Assembly (NCBI GenBank): GCA_052035095.1
Contig: JBPOHW010000005.1
Span: 30,269 to 94,268, forward strand
Direction: 5' to 3'
Length of the DNA stretch: 64,000 bases
From: Candidatus Moraniibacteriota bacterium
Lineage (GTDB): Bacteria; Patescibacteriota; Minisyncoccia; Moranbacterales; UBA1568
This document shows, one piece after another, positions 33,578 through 46,099 of the stretch. Both the position numbers and the translations under genes were made by a program. The notes below the pieces were generated by a model, which saw nothing but the letters and a program-made list of their open reading frames with translations, had not been told where the DNA came from and did no database searches. How positions within the stretch are numbered: the stretch's first letter is position 1; each line of letters begins with the position of its first letter.

Positions 33578-34687
33578 CTATCGGAGGGGGGTCCCTCGTT
33601 GGTCCTCGACCAGCACTTCCTTAAGCCGCTCCATATCTTCGAGGACAACGCCCGTACCGCGTACCACCGCAGTCAAAGGATCCTCCATCATACGGACGGG
33701 AATGCCGGTTTGATTGGCGAGAAATCGATCAAACCCGCGAATCATACTTCCGCCGCCCGCCAGAATAATGCCCCGCTGAAAAATATCAGAAAGAAGTTCG
33801 GGCGGCGTTTCCTCTATAATCGTCTTGATGTTATTGACAATAATGCGGATCGAATGCGAAAGCGCCTCGCGAATATGTTCGTCGGTCGCGATGATCTCTT
33901 TGGGCAATCCGCTCACCAAATCGCGTCCGCGTATGGGATAGGTCATCGGCTCTCGAAGCGTATAGGCGCTCCCGATGGAAATTTTCACTTCTTCAGCGGT
34001 CTTTTCCCCGATAAGAAGATTGAATGAATCTCGCGCGTACCGGACGATGTCCTCGTTCATTTCGTCACCCGCGATACGAAGACTCCGCGATACAACGACG
34101 CCGCCCAAAGAAATAACGGCAATCTCCGTCGTCCCGCCACCGATATCGACGACCATGTTGCCGGACGCCTCGATAACCGGGAGTCGCGCGCCAATCGCCG
34201 CCGCCATCGGCTCGTCGATGAGGAACGCTTCGCGCGCTCCGGCATTCATCGTCGCTTCAATGACCGCGCGCCGTTCCACTTCGGTCACTCCCGAGGGAAC
34301 TCCCACCAAAACGCGCGGTCGCCGCAAAAACGCAAGATTGGTATCATGCACTTTATTGATAAAAAACCGGAGCATTTGTTGGGTCACGTCGAAGTCGCTC
34401 ACGACACCATCAACCAAAGGTCGTGTCGCCACAATATGCCCGGGCGTCTTCCCTACCATACGTTTGGCATCGCGTCCGATCGCGAGAATTTGCCCGGTCC
34501 GTTGATTCACCGCCACAACCGACGGCTCATTGATGACAATCCCCTTCCCGCGCACATAGACCAGCGTATTCGCCGTTCCCAAATCAATACCGATATCCTG
34601 CGAAAATCGCCCGAATACCATATCGGAAAATTGTTTCCGATACCGCCTGTATTGATGCGCAAATGAATTCGGTGAATGTGATTCCAT
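33578..34687 (-). CDS. mreB: Rod shape-determining protein MreB (actin homologue)
   Basis: IGIDLGTANTLVYVRGKGIVINEPSVVAV and downstream actin-fold motifs. The true start is probably the internal Met near 34621 (MVFGRFSQDIGIDLG). Confidence 0.9.
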   Translation of the reverse strand: MESHSPNSFAHQYRRYRKQFSDMVFGRFSQDIGIDLGTANTLVYVRGKGIVINEPSVVAVNQRTGQILAIGRDAKRMVGKTPGHIVATRPLVDGVVSDFDVTQQMLRFFINKVHDTNLAFLRRPRVLVGVPSGVTEVERRAVIEATMNAGAREAFLIDEPMAAAIGARLPVIEASGNMVVDIGGGTTEIAVISLGGVVVSRSLRIAGDEMNEDIVRYARDSFNLLIGEKTAEEVKISIGSAYTLREPMTYPIRGRDLVSGLPKEIIATDEHIREALSHSIRIIVNNIKTIIEETPPELLSDIFQRGIILAGGGSMIRGFDRFLANQTGIPVRMMEDPLTAVVRGTGVVLEDMERLKEVLVEDQRGTPLR

Positions 34688-34821
34688 ACAAACGCAAAAA
34701 AATCGGAAGAGTCATTCCTTCACCAAGACTACCAAGAAACCCCCCAAGGAGCAAGAAAATTCGCACGGGCAACACTTCCCGTGCGAATTTCAAAATCCAC
34801 GAAAAACTCAGTCTCCCGGCT

Positions 34822-36147
34822 TCACGGCGTGAGACGTTTGACGTCTCTCGGAAAGAGGACAGCCTGTTTGATGGTGGGAAGTCCCAAGAGTTGCTGAATG
34901 GTGCGCTCCGATCCCCAGCCCCACCCGCCGTGCGGCGGGCAACCATACCGAAAGGTGTCGAGATAATTCGAGAAATCCTCCGGATTCATCCCGCGCTTCT
35001 TGATCGACTCCACCATTTTTTTGTATTCATGAATACGCTGTCCGCCAGTCGCGAGTTCCAGCCCGCGAAAGAGGAGGTCGAAGCTTTCCGTAAAGTGCGG
35101 ATCGGCGCCCGGCAAAGTATAAAACGGCCGAATGGCGGTCGGATAATGCGTCAAGAAGACAAAATCCGATCCAAATTCGCGCTTCACATACTCGCAAATC
35201 ATCCGCTCGCCCTCGGGATCGATGTCGATTTCCCCGCCTTCCATTTTCTTCCCGAATTCTTTTTCAAGAATTTGAAGCGCTTCCGTCAGCTTCATGCGCG
35301 GGATAGCGACTCTTTTGGGAGCCTCGGCGCCCCACAATTCAAGCTCTTCTTTTCCTCGTTCGCCTATTTTTTCAAACACGTCAAAAATGATGCTTTCGAG
35401 CTCGTTCATCACGTCACCGACGCCTTCAATAAACGCCATCTCGGCATCAAGACTCACGTATTCGTTCACGTGGCGCGTCGTAAAGTGCGGCTCGGCGCGA
35501 AACACCGGTCCAATCTCGAAAACTCGCTCAAACACACTTGCCCCCGCCTCCTTATAAAATTGCGGACTCTGCGCGAGAAACGCATCGCGATCAAAATATT
35601 TGATCTTGAAAAAGTTGGCGCCGCCTTCGGTCGCGGCATTCACCACCTTTGGCGTCTTCACCTCGAGAAAACCGCGCGACCGAAGCGCGTCGGCATACGC
35701 GGATACCAGTATGCCATAAAGCCGAAAAATCGCCTGAACTTTTCGATTGCGGAGCGAAAAAATGCGATTGTTGAGAAGTGTATCAAGATGAAGTTCCTCA
35801 AGACCGCCCTCAGCTATTTCAAATGGGAGCGGACTTTCGGGAGCGGAAAGAATGATGAGTTCTTCAACTTCCACTTCGATACTCCCCAGGGTATCGGCGC
35901 GCTCGGCGCCACCCGGACGAGATTTCACCACACCGATCGCCTCGATGATACACTCATTCCGGCACTCGCGCGCCGCCTCATACGCCGCGCTATGATCGGG
36001 TATTACCACCAGTTGAACCGTACCGCTTCGATCGCGAACATCGAGAAATAAAATTTTCCCGTGGTCGCGACGCATATTCACCCATCCTTTCAGGCGAACC
36101 CGTTCCCCTTTCGCACGCAACGCTTCGACAATCAGTGTTCGTTCCAT
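34822..36147 (-). CDS. aspS: Aspartyl-tRNA synthetase, archaeal/eukaryal type (AspRS2-like; possibly non-discriminating)
   Basis: 441 aa with an N-terminal OB fold, FLEVKTPKVVNAATEGGANFFKIKYFDRDAFLAQSPQFYKE (the ATEGGA motif is typical of archaeal-type AspRS, versus SDCEGAGE in AsnRS), FRAE motif 2 and GGWGWGSER motif 3. Confidence 0.7.
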   Translation of the reverse strand: MERTLIVEALRAKGERVRLKGWVNMRRDHGKILFLDVRDRSGTVQLVVIPDHSAAYEAARECRNECIIEAIGVVKSRPGGAERADTLGSIEVEVEELIILSAPESPLPFEIAEGGLEELHLDTLLNNRIFSLRNRKVQAIFRLYGILVSAYADALRSRGFLEVKTPKVVNAATEGGANFFKIKYFDRDAFLAQSPQFYKEAGASVFERVFEIGPVFRAEPHFTTRHVNEYVSLDAEMAFIEGVGDVMNELESIIFDVFEKIGERGKEELELWGAEAPKRVAIPRMKLTEALQILEKEFGKKMEGGEIDIDPEGERMICEYVKREFGSDFVFLTHYPTAIRPFYTLPGADPHFTESFDLLFRGLELATGGQRIHEYKKMVESIKKRGMNPEDFSNYLDTFRYGCPPHGGWGWGSERTIQQLLGLPTIKQAVLFPRDVKRLTP

Positions 36148-36752: not shown

Positions 36753-37541
36753 TCAACGGAATTTCCACTTCCACATATATCGTACCCACGACCGTATATG
36801 CTCGCGCGCGAGGCGACTCGTAAAAGGCGCCACAAACCAACGTGATCGAGCGCTCCCTCTCGCGTGATCGTGTATGACAACCGCTTCCGGCAAGTATACC
36901 ACTCGAAGACCACTCCGCCACGCCCGACGGCACAGATCGGTATCTTCAAAATACATAAAGAAGCGCTCATCAAACCCGCCCACCCGCCGATAAAAATCCG
37001 CTCGTATCATAAGGCACGACCCGATCATCCAGTCGACATCGCGAATCGTCTCGTGATCGAAGTCGGTCATAAGATACCGCCCGAGATACGCCGGCACAAG
37101 ACGCCCGAGCGATGTCCGACGTACAATCGGCGTCCACACTTTCGGAAACCGAAGGCAGGAATATTGAAGCGTCCCGTCGGGATTCAAGAGTTTCGGCCCC
37201 ATAATGCCGATATCCTCACGCTCCTTCATACCCAAAAAAAGAAGTCGGACAGCATCGGGACGAACCAAGGTGTCGGGATTCAGAATAAGGAAAAACTTCC
37301 CCGTCGCCCGCTCGGCGCCCCGATTGTTCCCGCCCCCCATTCCGAGATTCTTTCCGCTTGAAAGGAACACTGCCTCCGGAAACTCCCTCTCGAAAGAAGT
37401 ATCAAAATCAGCCGTCTCGCTATTGTCAACCACGATCGTTTCATGCGATACTCCCGAGAAATCGGCTTTCCGAAGAGAACAAAGACACCGCCGAGTTTTC
37501 TCTCGGCTTCGATAGTTAACCAGAATGATACTCACGTCCAT
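36753..37541 (-). CDS. Glycosyltransferase family 2
   Basis: MDVSIILVNYRSREKTRRCL...VVDNSE...DTD...DED are GT-A (DXD) motifs. The ORF-track N-terminal 69 aa are antisense read-through of tRNA-Arg and are discarded; the start is the ATG at 37539-37541. Confidence 0.8.
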   Translation of the reverse strand: MDVSIILVNYRSREKTRRCLCSLRKADFSGVSHETIVVDNSETADFDTSFEREFPEAVFLSSGKNLGMGGGNNRGAERATGKFFLILNPDTLVRPDAVRLLFLGMKEREDIGIMGPKLLNPDGTLQYSCLRFPKVWTPIVRRTSLGRLVPAYLGRYLMTDFDHETIRDVDWMIGSCLMIRADFYRRVGGFDERFFMYFEDTDLCRRAWRSGLRVVYLPEAVVIHDHARGSARSRWFVAPFTSRLAREHIRSWVRYMWKWKFR

Positions 37542-37633
37542 ACACCGGAAATACCGAAAAATACCAGTTTCCCCATTTCCCCAGTGTACAATACTCGCAA
37601 AAAAAAGTATACTGCCTGACGAAGAAGGCACAC

Positions 37634-37706
37634 GTCTCTGTAGCTCAGTGGATAGAGCGTCTGGTTCCGGTCCAGAAGGCCGCAGGTCCGATTCCTGCCA
37701 GGGACA
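37634..37706 (+). tRNA. tRNA-Arg (anticodon CCG)
   Basis: Manually folded: acceptor GTCTCTG/CAGGGAC (one G-U pair), D-arm GCTC-AGTGGATA-GAGC, anticodon stem TCTGG/CCAGA with loop UUCCGGU, variable AGGCC, T-arm GCAGG-TCCGATT-CCTGC, discriminator A. No CCA encoded. Confidence 0.85.
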
Positions 37707-37710
37707 CACA

Positions 37711-37737
37711 CAAAAAGCGAGTTCGACTCGCTTTTTA
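37711..37737 (+). terminator. Rho-independent terminator immediately after tRNA-Arg
   Basis: AAAAAGCGAG-TTCGA-CTCGCTTTTTAT. Confidence 0.65.
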
Positions 37738-37760
37738 TATTCGCACAAACAAAACTTCGA

Positions 37761-39407
37761 TCATCCTTTCTTCACGGGGAAATCGACGGAAAAGGTGGAG
37801 CCTTTGTTGATGCCTTCGGAGAAAACGGAAATGGTTCCGCCCTGAGCTTCCATCATGCTCTTTCCCACATAGAGCCCGAGCCCGGTACCATTGGCATAGA
37901 GCTTCCCGCTCTCCTCGCCGCGGGTAAACTTCACAAAGAGCCGCGGAATCGCTTCGGGCGCTATGCCGACGCCCGTATCCGAAACCGAGATACGAACCAT
38001 GTTTGACACACGCTCCACTCGAACGCGGACACTCCCCTTCGGCGTATATTTGATCGCGTTATCTATCAAGTTCGACACCACTTCGAACGATTTCTTGCGA
38101 TCGATCCACACCGGCGGCAACGCCTCCCCTTCGGGACACTCAAAGGAAAGCTCAAGCCCCTTCTTCTTGGCGGCAATTGCAAACGTATCGCGAAGTTCAT
38201 TCAAGAATTCACATAAATTCACTTCCGTATATTCATAGACGAGTCGCCCCGCCTCCATACGAGAAATATTGAGAAGATCTTCAACCAAGTGAATAATACG
38301 CTCATTGGACGTATAAATTTTTTTGAGAATATCGGCGATACCGGCGGGCACCGCGCCATATGACCCCTCAAGAAGAAGCGAGACGAATCCCTTGATGGCG
38401 GTAAGCGGCGTCCGCAACTGATGCGACGCAATCGAGATAAATTCCGTTTTCGATTGGTCGAGCCGCTTCAACTCCACGTTCGCCGCCGCGAGCTTGTCCG
38501 TCACCACCTGCAACTCCTCCTTCCGCCGAATTTCATTCTTCACCGACCGGATGAGCAATATCCCGAATCCGATGGATAGAAGAAAGGTAACCGAAGTCAA
38601 AATATAATTGGTCGTTGTCTTGATGAAAAAAAGCTGAGCGCCGATAAGAACCGAAAGCCCAATCACCAACGCCTGCGCAGCAAGAAGCTTAATATTGAAT
38701 ATCTGGTATCGGACAATGAGATACGCCAAAAGCCCCATAAAAACCGGCATGCCGAAGAGTCCGTATTGGAGATATTCCCAATGCTCGGTAACACTTCCCA
38801 AAATATTCATCCCGGAAAAAGAGAGAAGAAAGAAAATTGAACCAACGGAAAGAAGCACCACCTTCTTTCTCTCTTCTCCGGAAGAATGAGCTATTTTATA
38901 AAGAAGAAATCCGAGAAGCCAGAGAAAAAAGAATACTTCGAGAAAATAGAAGTAGTATATGATCGGTCCCTGCGTCGCCTCGCAAACGGCCACATCAAAA
39001 CCCTTCAAATTAATACCCGTTGGAATCAACGCTAAAAATGGAAGAAAGAGGAAAGCGACAAACATTTTCCATCGAAGCAACACATCGCGCTTTTCCAAGA
39101 AGAGATACACGAAGTACAGCGTAAACACCGAAACGAAATTTTCAAGAATGTTAACAAACGACCACACAAACATAATGAAGCGACTGTCATTATTTGTCCA
39201 AAGTACAAGGTCTGAAAGCGCCCAAAAAGTAAAAAAAATAGATACGAAAAGAAGAGACTGAGCGGAAATATCACGACCCTTCATCCAAACAAAAAATCCG
39301 AGAAACAATGAAACAAGAATTGCCGGGAAATGTGAATAATACAAAAGTGGATGTGCTTCTTCTGAAAATATAAAAAACAAAGGATCTGAAATGTCTGTAC
39401 AGAACAT
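37761..39407 (-). CDS. Sensor histidine kinase with large N-terminal polytopic membrane domain
   Basis: About 8 TM helices, then HisKA (SHQLRTPLTAIKGF, phospho-His) and HATPase_c (GTGLGLYVGKSMMEAQGG) motifs. Confidence 0.85.
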   Translation of the reverse strand: MFCTDISDPLFFIFSEEAHPLLYYSHFPAILVSLFLGFFVWMKGRDISAQSLLFVSIFFTFWALSDLVLWTNNDSRFIMFVWSFVNILENFVSVFTLYFVYLFLEKRDVLLRWKMFVAFLFLPFLALIPTGINLKGFDVAVCEATQGPIIYYFYFLEVFFFLWLLGFLLYKIAHSSGEERKKVVLLSVGSIFFLLSFSGMNILGSVTEHWEYLQYGLFGMPVFMGLLAYLIVRYQIFNIKLLAAQALVIGLSVLIGAQLFFIKTTTNYILTSVTFLLSIGFGILLIRSVKNEIRRKEELQVVTDKLAAANVELKRLDQSKTEFISIASHQLRTPLTAIKGFVSLLLEGSYGAVPAGIADILKKIYTSNERIIHLVEDLLNISRMEAGRLVYEYTEVNLCEFLNELRDTFAIAAKKKGLELSFECPEGEALPPVWIDRKKSFEVVSNLIDNAIKYTPKGSVRVRVERVSNMVRISVSDTGVGIAPEAIPRLFVKFTRGEESGKLYANGTGLGLYVGKSMMEAQGGTISVFSEGINKGSTFSVDFPVKKG

Positions 39408-39493
39408 AAAAGAAATTTTTATTCCCTCCTCGGGGTCATTTTAACATAAAACAAGTATCCCTGCTCTAAAAGGCCAACTTCAAAGGAAAATAT

Positions 39494-40429
39494 CTACAAT
39501 AAGTAAACTCCAAAAGCAACAACTGCTATAGAACATATTTTAACACATAAACCGCGAAATTGATCTCGATATATTTTTTGTACAAACAGTGTCTGAAAAC
39601 GAAAAATCCACAAAAATACTATCAATAGAGCGCTAAACAACATCACAAAAGCCGGAATCAGGGTTTCCAAGACCGCAACAAAAGACGGTGAAGAGGAAAG
39701 GGAGAGCGCTCGTTGCGAACACAAAAATCCGAGAAGCGCCAGCCCTTCGCTTATCAAAAACACAAACCAATATCGTCGCGCCAGCTGAAACACTTTTGCA
39801 TTTCGTACTTTCACCGCCCACACAAGCGGCGCCACCAAAAATGCACCGAGTGAGAAAAGGAGATATCCGCTCCAAAATCCACCTTCTCCGACCAACTCAT
39901 ACGCGTGGGATTGAATTACCATACTTGCGGCAAGAGAGATATTCGCAAACAACATAGTCCCGGCGATAGACCAAAATCCTTCCGCGCGAATCGATGAGTC
40001 CATTGAAAGAAAAAATCCGCCGAGAAAAGCGACAAAAATTCCAACATACTGAATCCATTCAAGCCGTTCCCCAAGCGTGACCCATGAAAAAACCGGAACG
40101 AGGGGAAGTGAAAGCGTCCACAGTACCTGCGCCAGCGAGACATCGTTCTTTTGAAAGAGGGCTTTAAAATAAAAGTAGAAAGCCCCCATATAGAGGAAGC
40201 CCCCAAGAAGAAAAAGAACAAAAGGAAACATCGGAAGAAGCTGAAATTCCAAGATACCGAAAGGAACGGCAATCCATGGAACGATCTGAAAAAAACTCGA
40301 CAACAAAAGACCGTCAAGCGGTCCATCATAGATATCCTCAACAAAATACACGTCAATCAAATTGACAATCGCCCACAAGGCCGGCGCGCACAGCGCCAAG
40401 AGAAACCAATTATCCCAGAGAAAGTGCAT
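39494..40429 (-). CDS. Polytopic membrane protein, function unknown (first gene of AT-rich island)
   Basis: 311 aa with about 9 predicted TM helices and no diagnostic motif. Lower GC than the backbone. Confidence 0.4.
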   Translation of the reverse strand: MHFLWDNWFLLALCAPALWAIVNLIDVYFVEDIYDGPLDGLLLSSFFQIVPWIAVPFGILEFQLLPMFPFVLFLLGGFLYMGAFYFYFKALFQKNDVSLAQVLWTLSLPLVPVFSWVTLGERLEWIQYVGIFVAFLGGFFLSMDSSIRAEGFWSIAGTMLFANISLAASMVIQSHAYELVGEGGFWSGYLLFSLGAFLVAPLVWAVKVRNAKVFQLARRYWFVFLISEGLALLGFLCSQRALSLSSSPSFVAVLETLIPAFVMLFSALLIVFLWIFRFQTLFVQKIYRDQFRGLCVKICSIAVVAFGVYLL

Positions 40430-40486
40430 ATCGAAGGTAATCAGTAAAAAACAAAACTAAAACTATTTATAAAAATCAATTGTTTT

Positions 40487-40942
40487 TTACTTTTCCTGTA
40501 TGTTCAAGATTCTCTCTTGCACCCTATCGAGCTCCTCATCAGATACCTTTGGCCCTTCAACTGTTGTAATATAGCCAAGATATTCTGGATGAAATTCAAA
40601 GTGCTTGCTCCAGATATTCGTCTCATCCGCAAGATTTCCATGAAGCGGATACAGCTTTGCATGAACATAGGCAACGCCGGTACCCTCAAATACCATAGCA
40701 ACACGAGACACGCCAAGTGCTTTTTCAAGAATTTTTGCCACCGTTCTCGCCGCACCAAGCAAACCTTGATAGTCATTCTCCTTTAAGTCAAATACGTAGT
40801 TCCCAACATCACTCTTTGGAATCACGACAGTTACTCCAATGGTATTGGGAAATGGCGTCAAAAAAGCAAGGTAGTCATTATCTTCCCATACCTTCCACGA
40901 TTTCAATTCTCCAGAGAGAATTCTTTCAAAGAGAGTGCTCAT
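40487..40942 (-). CDS. HIT-superfamily-like protein with degenerate histidine triad
   Basis: The N-terminal FERILSGEL...WEDNDYLAFLTPFPNTIGVTVVIPK matches the HIT fold (IFCKII..E.P..V.ED....AF.DI.P.APGH.LVIPK). The HxHxHxx triad position reads VHAKLYP, with only one His retained. Confidence 0.45.
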   Translation of the reverse strand: MSTLFERILSGELKSWKVWEDNDYLAFLTPFPNTIGVTVVIPKSDVGNYVFDLKENDYQGLLGAARTVAKILEKALGVSRVAMVFEGTGVAYVHAKLYPLHGNLADETNIWSKHFEFHPEYLGYITTVEGPKVSDEELDRVQERILNIQEK

Positions 40943-40983
40943 AAACTCGATTAGCTCAATTCAGAAAGCGCTTTTTCCGCATG

Positions 40984-42393
40984 CTATTTCTTTCGCTTCT
41001 CAATCCAAACCTGTCGTAGCGTTTCATCGGATAACTCGCTCGGAGCGCCCATAAGCAAATCTTTTGCCTCGCCTGTTTTTGGAAATGCGATTACTTCACG
41101 AATACTTTCTTCACCAAGAATAGTAGAGATAAGCCGATCCATTCCAAGCCCCGTTCCAGCGTGCGGTGGAACCCCAAGAGAAAATGCACGAAGTATATGA
41201 CCAAATTTATTCTGTATTTCCTCTTCCCTAAGTCCGATCGACTCAAATATGGTTTTTTGTAGCCCTGCATCATGTATACGAACACTGCCAGAACTAATTT
41301 CATACCCATTCAGAACAAGATCAAACGCCGTGGAACGAACCGAGAGCGGATCGCTTTTTATTCGAGATATATCTTCGTCGAGCGGCATGGTAAATGGGTG
41401 ATGCGCGGATGAAATTCCAGTCTTCGAAGTGCTATCTTCTTCAAAAAGCGGAAACTCCGTCACCCAACAAAATGCCAACGTGTCACTATCTTTTTTCTCT
41501 CGCATATCCGGTTTGTCACACCCATAATTCTTCATAGAATCCGCATAGGTCATTTTTGGAAACGGCGTAGAAAGAATTTTCTTGTTCGGAAATATCTTCG
41601 AAACAAGCGCTATCATAGAATCCTCAACCATTTTCATCACATCACCCTCATCAACAAAAGACATCTCAATGTCAAATTGAGTAAATTCCGGCTGACGATC
41701 CTGTCGCTGATCCTCATCTCGAAAGCACCGTGCCACCTGAAAATATTTCCCCATACCGGAGACCATGAGAAGTTGTTTGAACTGTTGTGGAGATTGCGGA
41801 AGAACATAAAACTGTCCATGATGAATTCTCGAAGGAACGATAAATTCTCGAGCACCCTCCGGAGTTCCCTTAGTAAGGATAGGTGTCTCCACCTCACAAA
41901 ATCCATTCTCGCTGTAGTAATTCCGAAGAAAGAGCATTGTTTCATGGCGAGACCGGATATTTCTTTGCATTCGATCCGATCGGAGATCAAGATATCGGTG
42001 TTTCATGCGAAGAGACTCGTCTATCGCATTCGTGTCATCGTCAACGGAAAATGGAAGCGCTGTCGCAGGCGAAAAAATATGAAGAGTTTCAGCGACAAGT
42101 TCTCTGTCACCGAGAGGCTGATTTGGATTTATGAGATTTTTTTGTCGCTCAACGACGGTTCCGGAAACTTGTATGACCGACTCGAGGGAAATCTTCTTTA
42201 TTTGTTCAAATGTTTCTCCGGTACACACAACCTGAATTTTCCCCGAAGGGTCACGAAGATCACAAAAAGCAACCTTTCCGTGCAGTCGGAGGTTGTGTAC
42301 CCACCCAGAAAGAATAGTCTTTTTTCCGACACGTTCCCGACTCTCAGCTATAGAGCAATCATTCTTTCTATAGGTTTTCATAATGGTTTCCAT
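40984..42393 (-). CDS. aspS: Aspartyl-tRNA synthetase, bacterial type lacking the GAD insertion domain
   Basis: 469 aa with an N-terminal OB fold, RYLDLR, QSPQQFKQLLMVSG, FRDEDQRQDRQPEFTQFDIEMSF (motif 2), bacterial-specific LAFCWVTEFPLFEE and AHHPFTMP, GGSVRIHD and GLGMDRL (motif 3). There is no roughly 100-aa GAD domain. Its start overlaps the stop of the upstream fusion gene. Confidence 0.8.
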   Translation of the reverse strand: METIMKTYRKNDCSIAESRERVGKKTILSGWVHNLRLHGKVAFCDLRDPSGKIQVVCTGETFEQIKKISLESVIQVSGTVVERQKNLINPNQPLGDRELVAETLHIFSPATALPFSVDDDTNAIDESLRMKHRYLDLRSDRMQRNIRSRHETMLFLRNYYSENGFCEVETPILTKGTPEGAREFIVPSRIHHGQFYVLPQSPQQFKQLLMVSGMGKYFQVARCFRDEDQRQDRQPEFTQFDIEMSFVDEGDVMKMVEDSMIALVSKIFPNKKILSTPFPKMTYADSMKNYGCDKPDMREKKDSDTLAFCWVTEFPLFEEDSTSKTGISSAHHPFTMPLDEDISRIKSDPLSVRSTAFDLVLNGYEISSGSVRIHDAGLQKTIFESIGLREEEIQNKFGHILRAFSLGVPPHAGTGLGMDRLISTILGEESIREVIAFPKTGEAKDLLMGAPSELSDETLRQVWIEKRKK

Positions 42394-44381
42394 TAAGGAA
42401 TAATATGTGTCTGGCTTCTTGGAAATAGAACTACGTCTTCAACGGTATTATACCCAAGTAATTTCGCAACAACCCGATCAATTCCAAGACAAAAACCGCC
42501 GTGCGAAACCGGCGTCTTGAAGTAATCGAGATAAAACTGAAAGTTTTCAGGATTTACTCCTGACATCTTCATTCTTTCAACAATACGAGAAGCATCGGTT
42601 TCTCGTACGGCGCCAGAACAAATTTCCCAGCCCCTATAAATAATATCAAAGGACTCTGTATAGTGCTCGTCCACCTCTTTCGTATAAAACTTTTTCGTGA
42701 GATTCGGATAATGAACAATCGCAAAAATATCCCAGCTACGATTTTCTTTTAAGAAATTTGCCAATTCGTATTCCCTGCTATAACCAAGATCATCCCCGTA
42801 CGAATATTCAGTATCAACATGAGCTGTCACTATCTCAAATACCTCGTCATAACTTATGGATTGTATTTCCTTCGCAATAACATTTTCTTGCGCAATAAGT
42901 TGCCCTTCCAATAATCTCTCCGAGGAAAAATTCAGTATTTCTCCAGCAACAGCAAGTAGAGCATTGATTCCTTCATTTTTCTTCAGTTGCATTTCAACAT
43001 CAAGCCCCCATGCTTCTGATAAATGCCTTGCAGTAGGACTCGTCTCCTCACGCCAAAATGGTCCATACTCAAAAACGCGCCTCATCCCAGACAGAACAAG
43101 CATTTGCTTATACATCTGATTAGACTGTCGCAAAAAAAGTTTTCTTTCATACCATTGAACAGAGAACAATTCCTCACTTGCATTGTTTCTCGGTGGGTCA
43201 GTTGATATTGGTACTACATACGGAGTATGCACTTCCGTATAAACCTCCTTTTCTTGCAGATAATCTCGGAAGCCCTTTTCAAAAACGCTTCTCAAAAAAG
43301 CAACGTGCGCTAAATTTTTATTGAGCCTCTTCTTGCTCAATTCTAAGTTTAAGCCGACCTCCACACTTATCAACTCTTTTTCTATAGCACGATACACCTC
43401 ACCGACACGTTCTCTTATAATCTCATTTGCCTTTTCAATTTGAGCAACTCGATCCCTATATCGTTGAGCAGTCAGTTTTTTTATGGTCGCTATTGAATAG
43501 ATAGACGCGCTTTTGTTCAAAGATGCAAGCAAAATCGTATTCTGAGGGTTTCCAACATCGATAATTTTTGGTATATGGAACAACTTATTTATTTTCTCTG
43601 ACTCTTCATAAGAAAGAACATCCGAAAGACAGAAGAAAACGGCATCGTACTCGCCTATTTTATCGAGATACTCACTAAATTCGACTCTGGCTCTTGCCAC
43701 TCCGGTTTCAACCAATTTATTTGCTCGAGACTCTGTCCTATTTGTAACATCAATAGATTCAAAACCTTTTTCATGTAAAACATGTGCAATGAGGCTCCCC
43801 ATAGCTCCACATCCGACAATCAGAATGCACTGAGACTGATCGCCATTTACATTTTGAAGCAACTCAACCGCTTGTCGACCGACTGAAACGTTTCCAATCC
43901 CTATCATTGTTTGTTCTTTTACGGAAAGCGCTACTCTTTTGGCTGAACGAAAAAGAACCTCCATTACCGGACCAGAGGCTTTAAATTTTTTACTGCTCGT
44001 CAAAGCAAATCGAACCTGTCCAAGTACTTGACCATCCCCAATGGTCACGCTCTTTAATCCGGAAGACACTTGCAAGAGATGCTCGACACATTTGTATTCA
44101 CGGTAAAGGGCGATGTCAGATCCGCCGAAGCCATCTGGAGAGATACTAACTAATCTCCACGTTTTTACAATTTTTTCCAAATCAAAAACCCCCCAGACAA
44201 AAATCTCCGTGCAATTACATTTTTGCAAAATGACTACCTCCTCTACACAGGGGAGTTTCTTAAATTCACTATATCCCCGCGAAATATCTTTAATATTACA
44301 GGCATTGACGATATCCTGAGTGTTATTATTTAGACTTATTGAAATACAATAAAGGTCTCTTTTTTGCAAAGTTTTCCCCAT
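42393..44381 (-). CDS. Fusion protein: glutamyl-tRNA reductase (HemA/GluTR)-like N-terminal half + class IIb aminoacyl-tRNA-synthetase-like catalytic core (AspRS/AsnRS/AsnA-type, no anticodon-binding domain)
   Basis: N-half: VVILQKCNCTEIFVW (GluTR catalytic-Cys motif TCNRTELY, with Arg replaced by Cys), VEHLLQVSSGLKSVTIGDGQVLGQVRFAL (versus GluTR [23 protein letters not shown]), ILIVGCGAMGSLIAHVL...NRTESRANKLV (NADPH Rossmann domain, versus LLVGAGET...ANRTRERAQ) and KIIDVGNPQN (versus DIAVPRD). C-half: EVHTPYVV...RQSNQMYKQMLVLSG, YGPFWREETSPTARHLSEAWGLDVEM (motif 2), SFDIIYRGWEICSGAVRE and GGFCLGIDRVVAKLLG (motif 3). Confidence 0.7.
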   Translation of the reverse strand: MGKTLQKRDLYCISISLNNNTQDIVNACNIKDISRGYSEFKKLPCVEEVVILQKCNCTEIFVWGVFDLEKIVKTWRLVSISPDGFGGSDIALYREYKCVEHLLQVSSGLKSVTIGDGQVLGQVRFALTSSKKFKASGPVMEVLFRSAKRVALSVKEQTMIGIGNVSVGRQAVELLQNVNGDQSQCILIVGCGAMGSLIAHVLHEKGFESIDVTNRTESRANKLVETGVARARVEFSEYLDKIGEYDAVFFCLSDVLSYEESEKINKLFHIPKIIDVGNPQNTILLASLNKSASIYSIATIKKLTAQRYRDRVAQIEKANEIIRERVGEVYRAIEKELISVEVGLNLELSKKRLNKNLAHVAFLRSVFEKGFRDYLQEKEVYTEVHTPYVVPISTDPPRNNASEELFSVQWYERKLFLRQSNQMYKQMLVLSGMRRVFEYGPFWREETSPTARHLSEAWGLDVEMQLKKNEGINALLAVAGEILNFSSERLLEGQLIAQENVIAKEIQSISYDEVFEIVTAHVDTEYSYGDDLGYSREYELANFLKENRSWDIFAIVHYPNLTKKFYTKEVDEHYTESFDIIYRGWEICSGAVRETDASRIVERMKMSGVNPENFQFYLDYFKTPVSHGGFCLGIDRVVAKLLGYNTVEDVVLFPRSQTHIIP

Positions 44382-44551
44382 ACAACAAAAAAAATTCAGT
44401 AAGCAACCGACAAAAAGAAGTTATCAGGAAAGTAAACGAAAGACAAGTGCAGGCTTCTTCACTACGAAATTGCAAGACATCAGAACATCCATCCCCATCG
44501 TTTCAGCCGTTTGCTATCCTTTCTTTATAAATAGCTCCCTGATATAGGAAA

Positions 44552-45877
44552 TTAGGAAACCCATCCCCATTTTTGTAACAAAGGAAGCTCTTTTTCTGCA
44601 AATTGAACGCCGATATCTGTTCGGTAAAACATCTTCGGAACAATAATCTTTTCAACAATGCAATATACCTCTCCCCTTGCTTTTTCTATAGAATCTCCAA
44701 ATCCGGTAACGTAGAGTATAAACCCGTTGCTTCCGGAAATATAGTAATTCTTTCCCTCAGTTCCTCTATCCTTGGAAATTTCTTCAAAATGAACTCGACT
44801 TCGTTCCTCATGAGAAAGTGGGCAACTAAAGAAAACTCTCACACCTTTTGATGAATATATCGATGATATACCTTCATAGGGAAATGGTGGCGCCGCTACA
44901 GAGACAACTACGCCAAATCCGTGTTTATACTTCAAATCATACGATTTTCCATCCGCCACGGCACTCAAAAATTCCGTCCATGGGGAAAGATGGATTTCCG
45001 CTTGCAGCTGAGTGGAGGGACAACCAAGTCGCGAGGTAACCTCAAGCGGATACAGAGCCTTTTTATCAAGGATGCAATTTATGTCAATATCGCCTCTAAA
45101 ATCAATTTTCTGAAGATATGATTTCATCTTGGCAAGCGTCTGACAAAAAAGCTGGTTATTTTCATTATCGGTATACCACATCACCGTTCCCATTTCTCCG
45201 GTTTTCGGTCCGATACCATCGTTAAAAAGACTTTTGTGCTCAACATTGATTTCGATTGGTCCCACCCAATCCTTTCCATTAAAATAACGAGCAACCCCAA
45301 CCTCTATTCCCATCACCTTTTTCTGCAGGTCGATATCTTGAATTCCAACCTCATCATATTTTTTCAACACACTCAAAACATCCTCCCCATCATCAACTTT
45401 TCCAACATAATTAAGCGAACTTTGGTGACTATTCTGCTTTATCACCCACTGGCCCGGATGTTTTTTTAAAAATGCTATCGCCTTTTTCGGGCTCTCAAAA
45501 CGAAACGACGGGAGTATGGCAATCCCGCATTCCTCTAAAATTTTTTGTCCGTACTCGCGATTTTTTTCGAGACGATCTCCAAACGCGCTTCCGCCAAAAA
45601 CGCGGTAGCCTTCTTTTCGCAGGCGATCCTGTTCTCGACCAAACCCGACATCGTCAAAAACAATAAGCCCCTTCTTCCCCACCCATTCAAGCTCTTTTTT
45701 CCAGTCATTCGTCTTTTTGACCATACCATCGAGACATTCGCGCCGCTTCGGATCGCGAATATACATTTTCACGTCATTCCCCTCGCCCTTCAGGCGAACA
45801 CACAGATCCGCCCCAATTAATTCCCCCGAAACAAAGAGTATCCGCATAAAACAAAAAAGATAATTCCTCTCAATCAA
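44552..45877 (-). CDS. PurD-like ATP-grasp ligase (glycinamide-ribonucleotide-synthetase family fold)
   Basis: MRILFVSGELIG (PurD-type N-domain start), ATP-grasp core, GPKTGEMGTV (versus PurD GPNTGGMGA) and a C-terminal GFGDSIEKARGEVY (versus PurD GDTLEEAR..AY). The likely start is the internal MRILF Met. Confidence 0.6.
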   Translation of the reverse strand: MIERNYLFCFMRILFVSGELIGADLCVRLKGEGNDVKMYIRDPKRRECLDGMVKKTNDWKKELEWVGKKGLIVFDDVGFGREQDRLRKEGYRVFGGSAFGDRLEKNREYGQKILEECGIAILPSFRFESPKKAIAFLKKHPGQWVIKQNSHQSSLNYVGKVDDGEDVLSVLKKYDEVGIQDIDLQKKVMGIEVGVARYFNGKDWVGPIEINVEHKSLFNDGIGPKTGEMGTVMWYTDNENNQLFCQTLAKMKSYLQKIDFRGDIDINCILDKKALYPLEVTSRLGCPSTQLQAEIHLSPWTEFLSAVADGKSYDLKYKHGFGVVVSVAAPPFPYEGISSIYSSKGVRVFFSCPLSHEERSRVHFEEISKDRGTEGKNYYISGSNGFILYVTGFGDSIEKARGEVYCIVEKIIVPKMFYRTDIGVQFAEKELPLLQKWGWVS

Positions 45878-46099
45878 ACATCAAAATCAAACTCAAAATA
45901 TAGTTTCTAAAGTAAACTTGAATTTATACCATAAAATGATTTACGCGTCAATATTAAAAGTCAAAGAAAACGGACAAAAATGTCCGCTTGAAAAGAAACT
46001 CCATATTTTATGCTCGAAAAATACCCTTTCAATGGGGGAAAATGGGGTTTTCATATCGGAAAATACATCCGGAAAAACATCAACGATGGTCGGAGCTCT

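Follow-up and report, generated by a model that had tools for sequence, protein, structure and literature searches.

A glutamyl-tRNA reductase-like module fused to an aspartyl-tRNA synthetase core in a Candidatus Moraniibacteriota bacterium: a possible aspartate reductase

The stretch of DNA analyzed here (64,000 nucleotides, hereafter "the window") carries a gene that joins domains related to glutamyl-tRNA reductase (GluTR) to the catalytic core of an aspartyl-tRNA synthetase (AspRS). Its open reading frame lies exactly where a preliminary description of this DNA had placed it, and is followed by aspS. The features are listed below, with the evidence for each in parentheses.

42393..44381, minus strand: fusion gene, 662 amino acids plus a TAA stop (open reading frame with ATG start; Pfam, NCBIfam, homologues, AlphaFold 2)
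43908..44315, minus strand: GluTR N-terminal catalytic domain, residues 23-158 (Pfam GlutR_N, GluTR alignment, Foldseek)
44217..44219, minus strand: Cys55 codon (alignment to canonical GluTRs; invariant in 32/32)
43482..43838, minus strand: NADPH-binding Rossmann domain, residues 182-300 (Pfam Shikimate_DH)
43326..43493, minus strand: long "spinal" helix, residues 297-352 (AlphaFold 2 secondary structure; 1gpj alignment)
42396..43322, minus strand: class IIb AspRS-type catalytic core, residues 354-662 (Pfam, PRK05159, 3nel/1b8a, Foldseek, alignment)
40984..42393, minus strand: aspS, a housekeeping bacterial-type GAD-less AspRS (NF001750, 602 bits, cut-off 443)

The catalytic domain carries the K54-C55-N56 nucleophile loop and a G-D116-x-Q118 motif, and the Rossmann domain carries G190-x-G192-x-x-G195 and N214-R215-T216. 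The spinal helix, which joins the reductase to the synthetase core, holds R311. Within the core are motif 1 (E383..P387), L-R418-Q-S-N421-Q..K425, motif 2 (W443-R444-x-E446), D461/E463, E586..R593 and motif 3 (G633-x-D-R636). All motifs quoted in the preliminary description were found (KCNC, residues 54-57; GDGQVLGQV, 115-123; GCGAMG, 190-195; NRT, 214-216; QSNQ, 419-422; WREE, 443-446; GIDR, 633-636). Its domain sizes required revision: the synthetase part spans ~310 amino acids, not ~270, and the N-terminal part, given as ~300, spans ~350 when the helix is included.

Pfam models matched residues 23-158 (GlutR_N, E 2e-21, 76.8 bits against a cut-off of 27), 182-300 (Shikimate_DH/NAD(P), E 8e-14) and 354-656 (tRNA-synt_2, E 5e-51). 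No Pfam match to the tRNA_anti-codon (OB) domain was found in the fusion, whereas both true AspRS genes of the window do match it; AMP-binding, PP-binding and NAD_binding_4 domains also gave no Pfam match in the fusion. Among NCBIfam models, hemA (TIGR01035) is covered from position 25 to 335 of 416, so the GluTR dimerisation domain is absent, and archaeal-type AspRS (PRK05159) is covered from 135 to 438 of 438, which leaves the core without the OB domain and hinge. Both models score below their cut-offs (155 bits against 209.55 and 238 against 353, respectively), and the asparagine synthetase A model scores 101 bits against a cut-off of 368. In PDB sequence searches, the N-terminal half matched only GluTR (4n7r, E 1e-22; 1gpj, E 1e-21). 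The C-terminal half was nearest to Thermococcus kodakarensis AspRS (3nel/1b8a, E 3e-49) and far from archaeal AsnA (1nnh, E 1e-14; 3p8t, E 4e-9); the core is thus derived from AspRS and is not of the AsnA type considered earlier.

Predicted structures lead to the same assignment. With an AlphaFold 2 model of the N-terminal half (pLDDT 87), the seven best PDB matches by Foldseek are all GluTRs, at E 7e-21 to 8e-18 over 344-382 aligned columns. A generic Rossmann protein follows far behind, at E 1.5e-5, so this half is more than a generic Rossmann protein. The best fold matches of the full-length model (pLDDT 85) are archaeal AspRSs, to which the core aligns with an rmsd of 2.6-3.0 Å over ~317 columns. 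With a pTM of 0.55, the inter-domain geometry of this model is uncertain, and the length of the spinal helix probably leaves a wide distance between the two active sites. Because HMMs, PDB sequence searches and two AlphaFold models analyzed with Foldseek agree, we assign the architecture as GluTR catalytic and NADPH domains and spinal helix, followed by an archaeal-type AspRS core without an anticodon-binding domain. This agrees with the arrangement originally proposed, including the HMM matches expected for each part and the missing anticodon-domain match. Our literature search found no published enzyme of such design, and the preliminary description could not name one either.

We recovered 32 distinct full-length homologues, mostly from Patescibacteria, with pairwise identity down to 26%. 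The family comprises ~26 clusters among 1.84 billion representatives, and is rare yet conserved in these tiny bacteria of the "candidate phyla radiation" (CPR). An alignment of the 32 sequences has 68 invariant positions, including both active sites. In the reductase module, K54-C55-N56, S111, D116, Q118, G190, G192, R215 and R311 are kept in all members, and N214 in 31. The core likewise retains R444/E446 of motif 2, H453, E586 and R636 of motif 3 in every member, as well as S420, Q422, K425, D461 and R593, which by alignment correspond to what we take to be the aspartate-contacting positions of Escherichia coli and T. kodakarensis AspRS. Also invariant is D395, at the position of the flipping-loop Glu, and the motif-2 loop keeps its AspRS length, with Ser/Thr at position 450 in 32/32.

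Cys55, the aligned counterpart of the TCNR-loop Cys in canonical GluTRs and conserved throughout the family as anticipated, is the predicted thioester nucleophile. Around it, the canonical S-T-C-N-R-x-E loop has become x-K-C-N-[A/C/G]-x-x, and G-E-x-Q has become G-D-x-Q. Position 57 is A in 23 members, C in 8 and G in 1, but never R, and the loss of the Arg through which GluTR binds the side chain of Glu, first noted in the single sequence, therefore holds for the family. Judged from the alignment, the glutamate pocket of GluTR is rebuilt and the aspartate-binding residues of AspRS are kept; the pocket's positive charge appears to have shifted position without being lost, as would suit an acidic substrate that differs in length. 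Family-specific changes near the amino-acid site of the core (A to R418, P to N421 and a T-D-P-P-[K/R] insertion in the flipping loop) could mean that the substrate or acceptor is something other than plain aspartate or tRNA.

The fusion stop codon and the aspS start codon overlap by one base (...CCT TAA TGG..., with TAA and ATG sharing position 42393). The product of a 98%-identical aspS (P0020) is four residues shorter, which fits a start at the second ATG, 12 nt downstream; the two genes would then be separated by a short gap. Across the family, aspS adjoins the fusion in 13 of the 14 loci for which both flanks are available, with no aspS nearby in the other (L001/L015), and two gene orders are seen: aspS-SDR-fusion and fusion-aspS. 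The tight coupling to a GAD-less AspRS is therefore real, although this AspRS is not special, being the standard housekeeping enzyme of CPR bacteria. Ordinary CPR genomes have the order aspS-scpA-scpB, and the cassette lies exactly between aspS and scpA. A second, archaeal-type AspRS lies 5 kb from the fusion in the window.

Recurrent additional partners are a YdfG-like SDR and an Amidohydro_2 protein. The SDR, present in 22 of 31 distinct loci, is nearest to YdfG/YMR226C, sulfoacetaldehyde reductase and clavaldehyde dehydrogenase, and an Fe-ADH lies directly upstream in two SDR-less loci. None of the three (SDR, Fe-ADH, Amidohydro_2) occurs within the 64-kb window. HIT and PurD-like ATP-grasp genes, earlier regarded as partners, are not conserved with the fusion in our synteny comparison. 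A relative with 87% identity (L044) has no HIT gene, and HIT comes after the fusion in just one other locus (L028); the PurD-like gene is part of the backbone, occurring as well in a near-identical strain (L046) that lacks the fusion yet has both AspRS genes. No dedicated tRNA gene accompanies the cassette, and tetrapyrrole, dap, hom and thr genes are absent from the annotated neighbourhoods. Cell-wall genes (Ddl, MraY, FtsW, MurG, S11 and S66 peptidases) are near many cassettes. Peptidases (M17, M29, S66), ThiF, GNAT, HIT and EamA genes occur sporadically nearby; these are common CPR genes that are not conserved with the fusion.

Like the fusion, GluTR (HemA, EC 1.2.1.70; 1GPJ, 4N7R) has a catalytic fold with a nucleophilic Cys in a C-N loop, an NADPH Rossmann domain with NRT, and a long spinal helix with a conserved Arg, R311 aligning with Arg300 of Methanopyrus kandleri GluTR (1gpj). 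Contact of Arg300 with the tRNA acceptor stem has been proposed (PMC6399207). Unlike GluTR, the fusion has a class II synthetase core in place of the dimerisation domain (PF00745), has K-C-N-A/C-x-x and G-D-x-Q instead of T-C-N-R-x-E and G-E-x-Q, scores below the hemA cut-off, and sits in an aspS operon with no neighbouring tetrapyrrole genes. Its C-terminal half is ~30% identical to archaeal/eukaryal-type AspRS (T. kodakarensis, 1B8A/3NEL), sharing motifs 1-3, the residues of the aspartate-binding set and the C-terminal FPR...P tail. It differs in lacking the OB anticodon-binding domain and hinge, in several motifs (QSPQ to QSNQ, LAQ to LRQ, FRAE to FWRxE, KPFY to KKFYT) and in the flipping-loop insertion, which only the fusion has. 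Asparagine synthetase A (AS-A) and archaeal AS-AR are also aspartate-activating class IIb cores without an anticodon domain (PMC9437257). AS-A, however, stands alone and transfers to ammonia, whereas the fusion core is joined to a thioester reductase and is distant in sequence.

The synthetase fusions ErdS (AspRS-DUF2156) and LysX (LysRS-MprF) retain a complete synthetase, anticodon-binding domain included, and pair it with a transferase rather than a reductase. This partner domain has no homology to the reductase described here; the LysX model is among the NCBIfam matches of our fusion. Both place a synthetase and a domain that uses aminoacyl-tRNA on one polypeptide, and ErdS is a precedent for a synthetase fused to a domain that consumes aminoacyl-tRNA (PMC9437257). 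Amino acid:[carrier protein] ligases are class II cores without a tRNA-binding domain that load an activated amino acid onto a thiol, and so are a precedent for direct adenylate-to-thiol transfer (PMC9437257). Unlike the fusion, they are of SerRS-like descent, load the phosphopantetheine arm of a separate carrier protein and lack a reductase. Carboxylic acid reductases, Lys2 and NRPS A-T-R modules adenylate their substrate with ATP, hold it as a thioester and reduce it with NAD(P)H to an aldehyde, using a mobile carrier that links the two sites. The chemistry predicted for the fusion is the same, but the parts are unrelated: those systems combine an ANL adenylation domain with a phosphopantetheinyl carrier and an R domain of the SDR type, whereas the fusion combines a class II synthetase core with a GluTR-type domain and, possibly, tRNA.

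We tentatively propose, with a probability of roughly 0.4, that the fusion, a protein of two modules, reduces the alpha-carboxylate of aspartate in cooperation with the aspartyl-tRNA system. The core would bind L-aspartate and ATP to form alpha-aspartyl-adenylate, and the aspartyl group would pass to the 3' end of tRNA(Asp), probably the carrier, loaded by the fused core or by the co-transcribed AspRS. If the fused core loads it, the GluTR-like module would hold the tRNA, and an anticodon-binding domain would not be needed. Cys55 would then attack the ester to give an enzyme thioester, whose reduction by NADPH would release L-aspartate-1-semialdehyde (3-amino-4-oxobutanoate). The neighbouring SDR, where present, or Fe-ADH in two loci, may further reduce this reactive amino-aldehyde to the amino-alcohol aspartol (3-amino-4-hydroxybutanoate). 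In GluTR the dimer interface comes from the protein's own C-terminal domain; here the class II core probably takes over this role as well.

The alpha-carboxyl is the likelier site of activation because the residues that in AspRS bind the alpha-amino group and the side-chain carboxylate are retained in the core. Reduction of the alpha-carboxyl would yield aspartate-1-semialdehyde, not the 4-semialdehyde used for DAP. An amino-acid reductase that depends on an adenylate or on tRNA, as originally put forward, is a reasonable idea, but its preferred product, aspartate semialdehyde for DAP, would need an AsnA-like flipped substrate that the retained residues do not support. Points in favor of a link to tRNA are the aspS adjacency, the two gene orders, the AspRS-like motif-2 loop and the R311/Arg300 alignment; the YdfG-like SDR, and Fe-ADH in two SDR-less loci, point to an aldehyde product. 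GluTR chemistry is a precedent for the reductase module (PMC6399207). Several observations count against the proposal. One is the missing anticodon-binding domain, on which AspRS normally depends for efficient tRNA charging; if the housekeeping AspRS supplies Asp-tRNA, the intact activating core looks redundant. Others are the lack of a dedicated tRNA gene, the one well-flanked locus with no aspS nearby, and the family-specific changes near the amino-acid site. The position of M. kandleri GluTR His84, a residue implicated in catalysis, varies in the family (Y in 12, F in 11, H in 9), and SDR, Fe-ADH and Amidohydro_2 are absent from the window. We also know of no bacterial use for aspartate-1-semialdehyde or aspartol.

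A somewhat unlikely alternative is that Cys55 takes the acyl group directly from aspartyl-adenylate, followed by NADPH reduction to the aldehyde, making the fusion a tRNA-independent, non-homologous analogue of CAR/Lys2 or of aspartokinase plus ASADH, with a merely regulatory or historical linkage to aspS. Acyl-adenylates are more electrophilic than esters, the intact activating core would not be redundant, and neither an anticodon-binding domain nor an associated tRNA gene is present. Other class II cores that have lost their tRNA-binding domains use ammonia (AS-A) or a thiol (amino acid:[carrier protein] ligases) as the acceptor (PMC9437257). However, the adjacency of aspS in 13/14 loci in two gene orders speaks for tRNA, the core is still very AspRS-like, including its motif-2 loop, in contrast to the strongly diverged AS-A, and the spinal helix probably separates the active sites, which would favor a mobile carrier. 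Moreover, to our knowledge all GluTR-family enzymes act on aminoacyl-tRNA. More doubtful is AsnA-like activation of the beta-carboxyl, in which beta-aspartyl-adenylate would yield L-aspartate-4-semialdehyde and the SDR would make homoserine, a route that would circumvent aspartokinase, ASADH and homoserine dehydrogenase in three steps and feed DAP/lysine or Thr/Met. Its products are known, useful metabolites, cell-wall genes lie near many cassettes, the OB domain is absent as in AS-A/AS-AR, and a re-oriented substrate could explain R418, N421 and the flipping-loop insertion. Against it, the core is far nearer to AspRS than to archaeal AsnA by the E-values and model scores above; S420, Q422 and D395, whose AspRS counterparts hold the alpha-amino group beside the reacting carboxyl, are invariant; dap, hom and thr genes are absent from the annotated neighbourhoods; and ~26 clusters is oddly few for core metabolism.

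A division of labour appears improbable, in which the GluTR-like domain receives Asp-tRNA(Asp) from the housekeeping AspRS, and a different, second reaction on the reduced product falls to the fused core, for example converting aspartol and ATP to an aspartol-adenylate-like inhibitor or regulator of AspRS, or ligating aspartate to the product. It would give aspS, the reductase, the SDR and a core needing no tRNA non-redundant roles, and the second AspRS 5 kb away and the sporadic peptidase (M17/M29/S66), ThiF, GNAT, HIT and EamA genes also speak for it. We know of no synthetase that adenylates an alcohol, and this scheme is pure inference. Aspartol-adenylate is an established synthetic AspRS inhibitor (PMC3367201). 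Yet the strain with both AspRS genes and no fusion implies that the second AspRS is not a dedicated resistance gene, and the sporadic neighbours are not conserved. K425 and R593, aligned with binders of the side-chain carboxylate, do not discriminate between aspartate and aspartol. Finally, an assembly chimera, decaying pseudogene or non-catalytic (regulatory or scaffold) protein is essentially refuted. The architecture is rare, and some relatives are disrupted (a frameshift in L017/L018, an in-frame TAA in L006/L021), but the 32 intact homologues share 68 invariant positions including all catalytic residues, the models are confident and synteny is conserved. Composition is uniform across the junction, the reductase and synthetase halves being identical in GC/GC3 (0.397/0.361 and 0.398/0.348), and 32 distinct full-length proteins, drawn from independent assemblies, have this architecture; the fusion is not an assembly join.

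The fusion gene lies at 42393..44381 on the minus strand of the window, as the preliminary description had placed it, and encodes a protein of 662 amino acids from an ATG start. In Pfam searches, GlutR_N (PF05201) matched residues 23-158 (E 2e-21; 76.8 bits against a cut-off of 27), the Shikimate_DH-type NAD(P) domain (PF01488) matched residues 182-300 (E 8e-14), and tRNA-synt_2 (PF00152) matched residues 354-656 (E 5e-51; 174 bits). The same searches found in the fusion no match to the GluTR dimerization domain PF00745, which the canonical GluTRs P0014 and P0017 do have, and no match to the OB-fold tRNA_anti-codon domain PF01336, although the window's two genuine AspRS genes both match it. 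Comparisons with NCBIfam models agree. The hemA model TIGR01035 covers the protein only over model positions 25-335 of 416, and therefore the GluTR dimerization domain is absent; the archaeal-type AspRS model PRK05159 covers it over positions 135-438 of 438, and this late start means that the anticodon domain and hinge are absent. Scores lie below the curated cut-offs in each case: 155 bits against the equivalog cut-off of 209.55 for TIGR01035, 237.9 against 353 for PRK05159, and 183 against 368 for TIGR00458. The protein is a GluTR-type reductase module in which an AspRS-type core replaces the dimerization domain.

Searches of PDB sequences matched the N-half only to GluTRs (4n7r, E 1e-22; 1gpj, E 1e-21) and placed the C-half nearest to Thermococcus AspRS (3nel/1b8a, E 3e-49). 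An AlphaFold model of the full-length protein has a pLDDT of 85 and a pTM of only 0.55, so the domains are modeled well and their mutual arrangement is uncertain; its best fold matches in PDB are archaeal AspRSs (rmsd 2.6-3.0 A over approximately 317 columns). The model of the N-half (pLDDT 87) includes a single long helix at residues 297-351. That this half has the GluTR fold, and is not only a generic Rossmann protein, is upheld by Foldseek, in which the top seven PDB matches are all GluTRs (E 7e-21 to 8e-18; 344-382 columns), after which E-values fall by 13-16 orders of magnitude to generic Rossmann proteins.

The last base of the fusion's TAA stop codon is also the first base of the ATG at which the downstream AspRS gene begins. 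P0020, a 98% identical aspS product, is shorter by four residues, which fits a second ATG 12 nt further on; fusion and aspS are tightly packed whichever start is used.

A first homologue search recovered 12 proteins of the same architecture, from 88% down to 29% identity, and scans of genome and metagenome collections added 34 further loci. A second homologue search with a profile of the family gave no additional members. Most of the named source organisms belong to the Patescibacteria (Kaiserbacteria, Azambacteria, Parcubacteria and Saccharibacteria), and the few fusion-bearing MAGs with other labels may be mis-binned. Assemblies GCA_043719825.1 and GCA_964517325.1 are examples of complete genomes with the fusion. 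When 1.84 billion cluster representatives were searched exhaustively with an HMM, approximately 26 full-length fusion clusters were found. The family is thus real and diverse, but very rare.

Across 32 distinct full-length sequences, some pairs of which are only 26% identical, 68 positions are invariant. In the reductase part, these include K54-C55-N56, S111, D116, Q118, Q122, G190, G192, R215 and R311, and N214 is kept in 31 of the 32. In the synthetase part, they include L-R418-Q-S-N-Q422, K425, W443-R444-x-E446, H453, D461, E463, K563-K-F-Y566, E586, R593, H627 and R636. Because invariant residues occur in both catalytic centers, both are under purifying selection.

A chimeric assembly join or a frameshift at the junction, which the preliminary description had named as a possible source of error, is ruled out by the 32 intact homologues and by the uniform composition of the gene (GC/GC3 of 0.397/0.361 and 0.398/0.348 in its two halves). 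In L017 and L018, two fusion loci, a single frameshift (L017 8640-8960) splits the fusion into ORFs of 383 and 274 amino acids. We considered these ORFs as a split, two-gene (Rosetta-stone) form, but they join in the DNA by that one frameshift and are therefore not independent evidence. Two other loci (L006 and L021) have an in-frame TAA near residue 88 (L006 ~7908). These disruptions could be sequencing errors or pseudogenes.

Within the reductase module, Cys55 aligns with the Cys of the canonical TCNR motif in all 32 sequences. Alignment with canonical GluTRs also shows that the Cys-Asn loop, the GL-S motif, Q118/Q122, GxGxxG, NRT and an Arg equivalent to Arg300 are kept. In Methanopyrus kandleri GluTR, Arg300 is bound to citrate in the crystal, proposed to mimic contacts with the acceptor stem (PMC6399207). 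At the position of M. kandleri His84, the fusion family varies (Y in 12, F in 11, H in 9). The substrate loop has been rebuilt: S-T-C-N-R-x-E becomes x-K-C-N-[A/C/G]-x-x (A 23, C 8, G 1; n = 32), with the Glu lost in most members (the position is M/E/I/L/N/V), and G-E-x-Q becomes G-D-x-Q. The Arg of TCNR was reported in the 1GPJ study to make a salt bridge to the glutamate side chain. This Arg is never present in the fusion family, which instead has an invariant Lys directly before the Cys. The pattern suggests that Lys54 might be a relocated positive charge, suited to an acidic substrate of different length.

We aligned the synthetase core with Thermococcus kodakarensis AspRS and with the archaeal-type AspRS of the window. 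Class II motifs 1, 2 and 3 are present with their catalytic Arg residues, and R444, E446, E586 and R636 are invariant. S420, Q422, K425, D461 and R593, each found in 32/32 sequences, align with residues that contact Asp in AspRS, namely the QSPQ Ser and Gln, a Lys three positions further on, the Asp of the "LD.E" strand and the Arg of "G..R". The motif-2 loop has the length seen in AspRS, with Ser/Thr at position 450 in 32/32, and the C-terminal FPR...P tail is retained. Changes specific to the family are LAQSPQ to LRQSNQ, FRAE to FWRxE, KPFY to KKFYT, and a T-D-P-P-[K/R] insertion in the flipping loop. Two loci carry stand-alone genes for such a core near the fusion:

L009 4509-5483, minus strand: stand-alone core-only AspRS paralogue, 324 amino acids
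L004 9970-11034, plus strand: stand-alone core-only AspRS paralogue, 354 amino acids

Both share the derived traits of the fused core (the TDP insertion, FWR, KKFYTK and GFCLGxDR), although they have QSVQ/QSAQ, not QSNQ; judged by these motifs, they are its sisters. In the search of 1.84 billion representatives, many core-only proteins of 293-340 amino acids outscore true AspRSs. Core-only proteins of these kinds could be AS-A-like.

For genomic context, ORFs were called in all loci and clustered. The loci comprise 31 distinct ones, of which 14 have at least 3.5 kb on both sides. An automatic filter found a full-length aspS within 3.5 kb of the fusion in 11 of these 14; adding L016, where aspS is split into two ORFs, and L004, which has a divergent, GAD-containing AspRS, raises the count to 13. 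The only well-flanked locus with no AspRS gene nearby is L001/L015. The SDR gene is present in 9/14 well-flanked loci (22/31 overall) and Amidohydro_2 in 6/14 (9/31 overall). Genes are arranged either as aspS-SDR-fusion(-Amidohydro_2) or as fusion-aspS with SDR and Amidohydro_2 convergent. The fusion is therefore embedded in an aspS operon and frequently paired with an aldehyde-type SDR.

We rejected a reading of the adjacent GAD-less AspRS as a specialized paralogue: it is the common housekeeping type of CPR bacteria. Its relatives number in the thousands, and the best 120 all lack the GAD domain and have 422-479 amino acids; several of these are named aspartate--tRNA ligase and come from various CPR phyla. 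A protein named from Candidatus Moraniibacteriota shares 86% identity with the window's aspS product. In ordinary CPR genomes the genes run aspS-scpA-scpB(-S11 peptidase); in fusion-bearing genomes they run aspS-[SDR-fusion-(Amidohydro_2)-(M17)]-scpA-scpB-S11, so that the accessory unit has been inserted into the housekeeping aspS operon.

The nearest relatives of the SDR are YdfG/YMR226C (3rku, 3asu; E ~1e-49), sulfoacetaldehyde reductase and clavaldehyde dehydrogenase, NADPH-using enzymes whose substrates are small polar aldehydes and 3-hydroxy acids. For Amidohydro_2, no relative was informative. Two loci that lack the SDR have another candidate reductase directly upstream of the fusion:

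L006 6649-7650: Fe-dependent alcohol dehydrogenase
L014 464-1546: Fe-dependent alcohol dehydrogenase

The two are only 27% identical to each other; they hint, weakly, that an aldehyde-reducing step has undergone non-orthologous replacement. A scan for promoters and terminators was uninformative, its promoter calls being no better than those on shuffled sequences, and Rfam found only two tRNAs in the window and no riboswitch.

The functional proposals that follow are drawn from sequence, fold and synteny. We favor, with a probability of roughly 0.4, reduction of the alpha-carboxyl group of aspartate carried by tRNA(Asp). The fused core would make alpha-aspartyl-adenylate, and tRNA(Asp) would carry the aspartyl group at its 3' end. 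The charging enzyme would be the fused core, its tRNA held by the GluTR-like module, or else the co-transcribed AspRS. Cys55 would then form a thioester, NADPH would reduce it to L-aspartate-1-semialdehyde, and the SDR would convert this product to aspartol. Class II cores of the parent family are obligate dimers, and this one may also take the place of the lost GluTR dimerization domain. The preliminary description had instead proposed, as an example, aspartate semialdehyde for DAP or other products. GluTR-type reduction acts at the esterified or adenylated carboxyl, which for an AspRS-like core is C1, so the aspartate-4-semialdehyde used for DAP is not the product predicted.

The closest competitor is a tRNA-free route resembling that of CARs, in which Cys55 would take the acyl group directly from the adenylate; we consider it possible, though less probable than reduction on tRNA(Asp). 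ARAGORN found no dedicated tRNA recurring near the cassette in the window and 29 loci. Rather unlikely is AsnA-like beta-activation, which would yield canonical aspartate semialdehyde and homoserine. An AsnA-type core had been considered for the C-half and was not borne out: matches to archaeal asparagine synthetase A (AS-AR; 1nnh, E 1e-14; 3p8t, E 4e-9) are far weaker than the match to AspRS, and the best AsnA model scores 101 bits against a cut-off of 368. We give little credence to a division of labor whereby the reductase is fed by AspRS and its product undergoes a second reaction at the core, for example to aspartol-AMP, a known synthetic AspRS inhibitor (PMC3367201). The least credible alternative, an artefact or a non-catalytic protein, is very improbable beside the purifying selection on both centers.

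A bolder form of the aspartol-AMP proposal seems slightly more doubtful still than the division of labor itself: the cassette would be a tRNA-dependent pathway to a natural mimic of aspartyl-adenylate. AspRS would charge tRNA(Asp), the GluTR-like domain would produce aspartate-1-semialdehyde, the SDR would reduce it to aspartol, and the core, needing only ATP and an Asp-shaped ligand, would condense aspartol with ATP. To our knowledge, aspartol-AMP has so far been known only as a synthetic AspRS inhibitor. If the proposal were true, the compound would act either against hosts or competitors, as an antimetabolite, or on AspRS, as a feedback regulator.

Returning to reduction on tRNA(Asp) as the preferred reading, several known systems invite comparison. 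Like HemA, the fusion has a GlutR_N fold with a nucleophilic Cys and an NADPH Rossmann domain; unlike HemA, it lacks the pocket Arg and PF00745 and scores below the cut-off. Among the annotated neighbors of eight loci there are no heme (tetrapyrrole) genes. It resembles AspRS in the class II motifs and the residues aligned with Asp contacts, but has no OB anticodon domain, falls below the curated cut-offs, and has QSNQ in place of QSPQ. AS-A/AS-AR are stand-alone proteins, whereas the present core is fused, distant in sequence and below the AsnA cut-off. CAR, Lys2, the NRPS A-T-R reductases and the aspartokinase/ASADH pair would be alike in predicted chemistry; the first three have no parts homologous to the fusion, in which Pfam found no ANL adenylation domain, phosphopantetheine carrier or SDR-type R domain. 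ErdS and LysX are alike in design only, in that a synthetase is joined to a domain consuming aminoacyl-tRNA; they combine a complete aaRS with DUF2156/MprF, and the fusion has no OB, DUF2156 or MprF domain. A 2022 review gives AS-A/AS-AR and ErdS as the only AspRS paralogues (PMC9437257). The preliminary description could name no described enzyme of this design, and we likewise found no description of a GluTR-AspRS-core architecture in the literature; public records give it only automatically assigned names, for example [quoted passage not shown]. The fusion is an undescribed combination of known modules and known chemical logic.

As far as we know, no enzyme family other than GluTR has been described as reducing aminoacyl-tRNA; GluTR itself has been linked to tetrapyrrole synthesis alone, and ultra-small CPR bacteria are generally held to lack heme synthesis. 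A GluTR relative with a rebuilt pocket and an Asp-activating core points to a second, so far undescribed use of tRNA- or adenylate-dependent reduction. If confirmed, it would be a third build of carboxylate reductase beside the ANL-PCP-R and kinase + ASADH types, in which tRNA may act as the swinging arm, and a new entry in the short list of nontranslational AspRS paralogues (AS-A, ErdS). For CPR bacteria, in which metabolism is little understood, it would also reveal a new aspartate-derived metabolite, either an amino-aldehyde or an amino-alcohol. The conserved aspS operon supplies testable partners: the fusion protein, AspRS, tRNA(Asp) and the SDR.

Among fusion loci, that of the window is atypical. 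No SDR, Fe-dependent alcohol dehydrogenase or Amidohydro_2 gene occurs within the 64 kb. A PurD-like gene lies upstream of the fusion, and aspS, a HIT-like gene and EamA lie downstream. Features referred to here are:

window 40487-40942, minus strand: divergent HIT-like protein, barely over the Pfam HIT cut-off (23.4 bits)
window 44552-45877, minus strand: PurD-like ATP-grasp protein with GARS_A/GARS_C (95 bits against a purD cut-off of 288)
window 34822-36147, minus strand: second AspRS, archaeal nondiscriminating type, 441 amino acids (PRK05159, 509 bits, above the cut-off)

The HIT-like and PurD-like genes had been put forward as members of the pathway. The relative at L044 (87% identical) has fusion-aspS-EamA with no HIT, and L046, with a 98% identical aspS, keeps the PurD-like gene and the downstream backbone with no fusion; the two genes are therefore not fusion partners. 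HIT enzymes can hydrolyze aminoacyl-adenylates, and by this analogy a loose functional link to the fusion is possible. The HIT-like gene, between aspS and EamA in the window, is missing there in both L044 and L046, and a homologue follows the fusion in L028. The PurD-like protein is probably a ligase; its gene is conserved backbone in L046, with no other purine-pathway gene among the annotated neighbors there.

In L046, the place of the fusion is taken by genes for an HD protein, a methyltransferase, an unknown protein of 388 amino acids with a faint AlaRS-core match, an S66 LD-carboxypeptidase, a class IIb core-only paralogue and Ddl. The segment from the PurD-like gene to aspS thus differs between strains (L046 2727-11398, also L047; window 40984-45877). 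We rejected the core-only tRNA-synt_2 protein (377 amino acids) and its 388-amino-acid neighbor as a split fusion: the former is 21% identical to the fused core, and the latter is dissimilar. The slot upstream of aspS, beside cell-wall genes, seems to be occupied in turn by several distinct aaRS-core paralogues.

The archaeal-type AspRS, approximately 5 kb downstream of the bacterial-type aspS, probably has a role in Asn-tRNA formation. The same pair of AspRS types occurs in L044 and L046, with or without the fusion. A plus-strand ORF of 462 amino acids at 34663-36051 is a spurious antisense call over the archaeal-type gene. GC content at 39000-46000 is 0.36-0.45, against approximately 0.50 in the flanks, and GC3 of genes in this block is 0.35-0.46, against 0.58 in the archaeal-type AspRS; the block takes in the housekeeping aspS and is therefore not simply a foreign island. 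A GT2 glycosyltransferase ORF (36753-37748, minus strand), as called, runs upstream across a tRNA-Arg(CCG) (37634-37707, plus strand), so its true start lies further downstream. An M17 leucyl-aminopeptidase gene at 7559-8884 (minus strand), 34 kb from the fusion, shares 46% identity with the M17 gene found after the cassette in L002 and L010.
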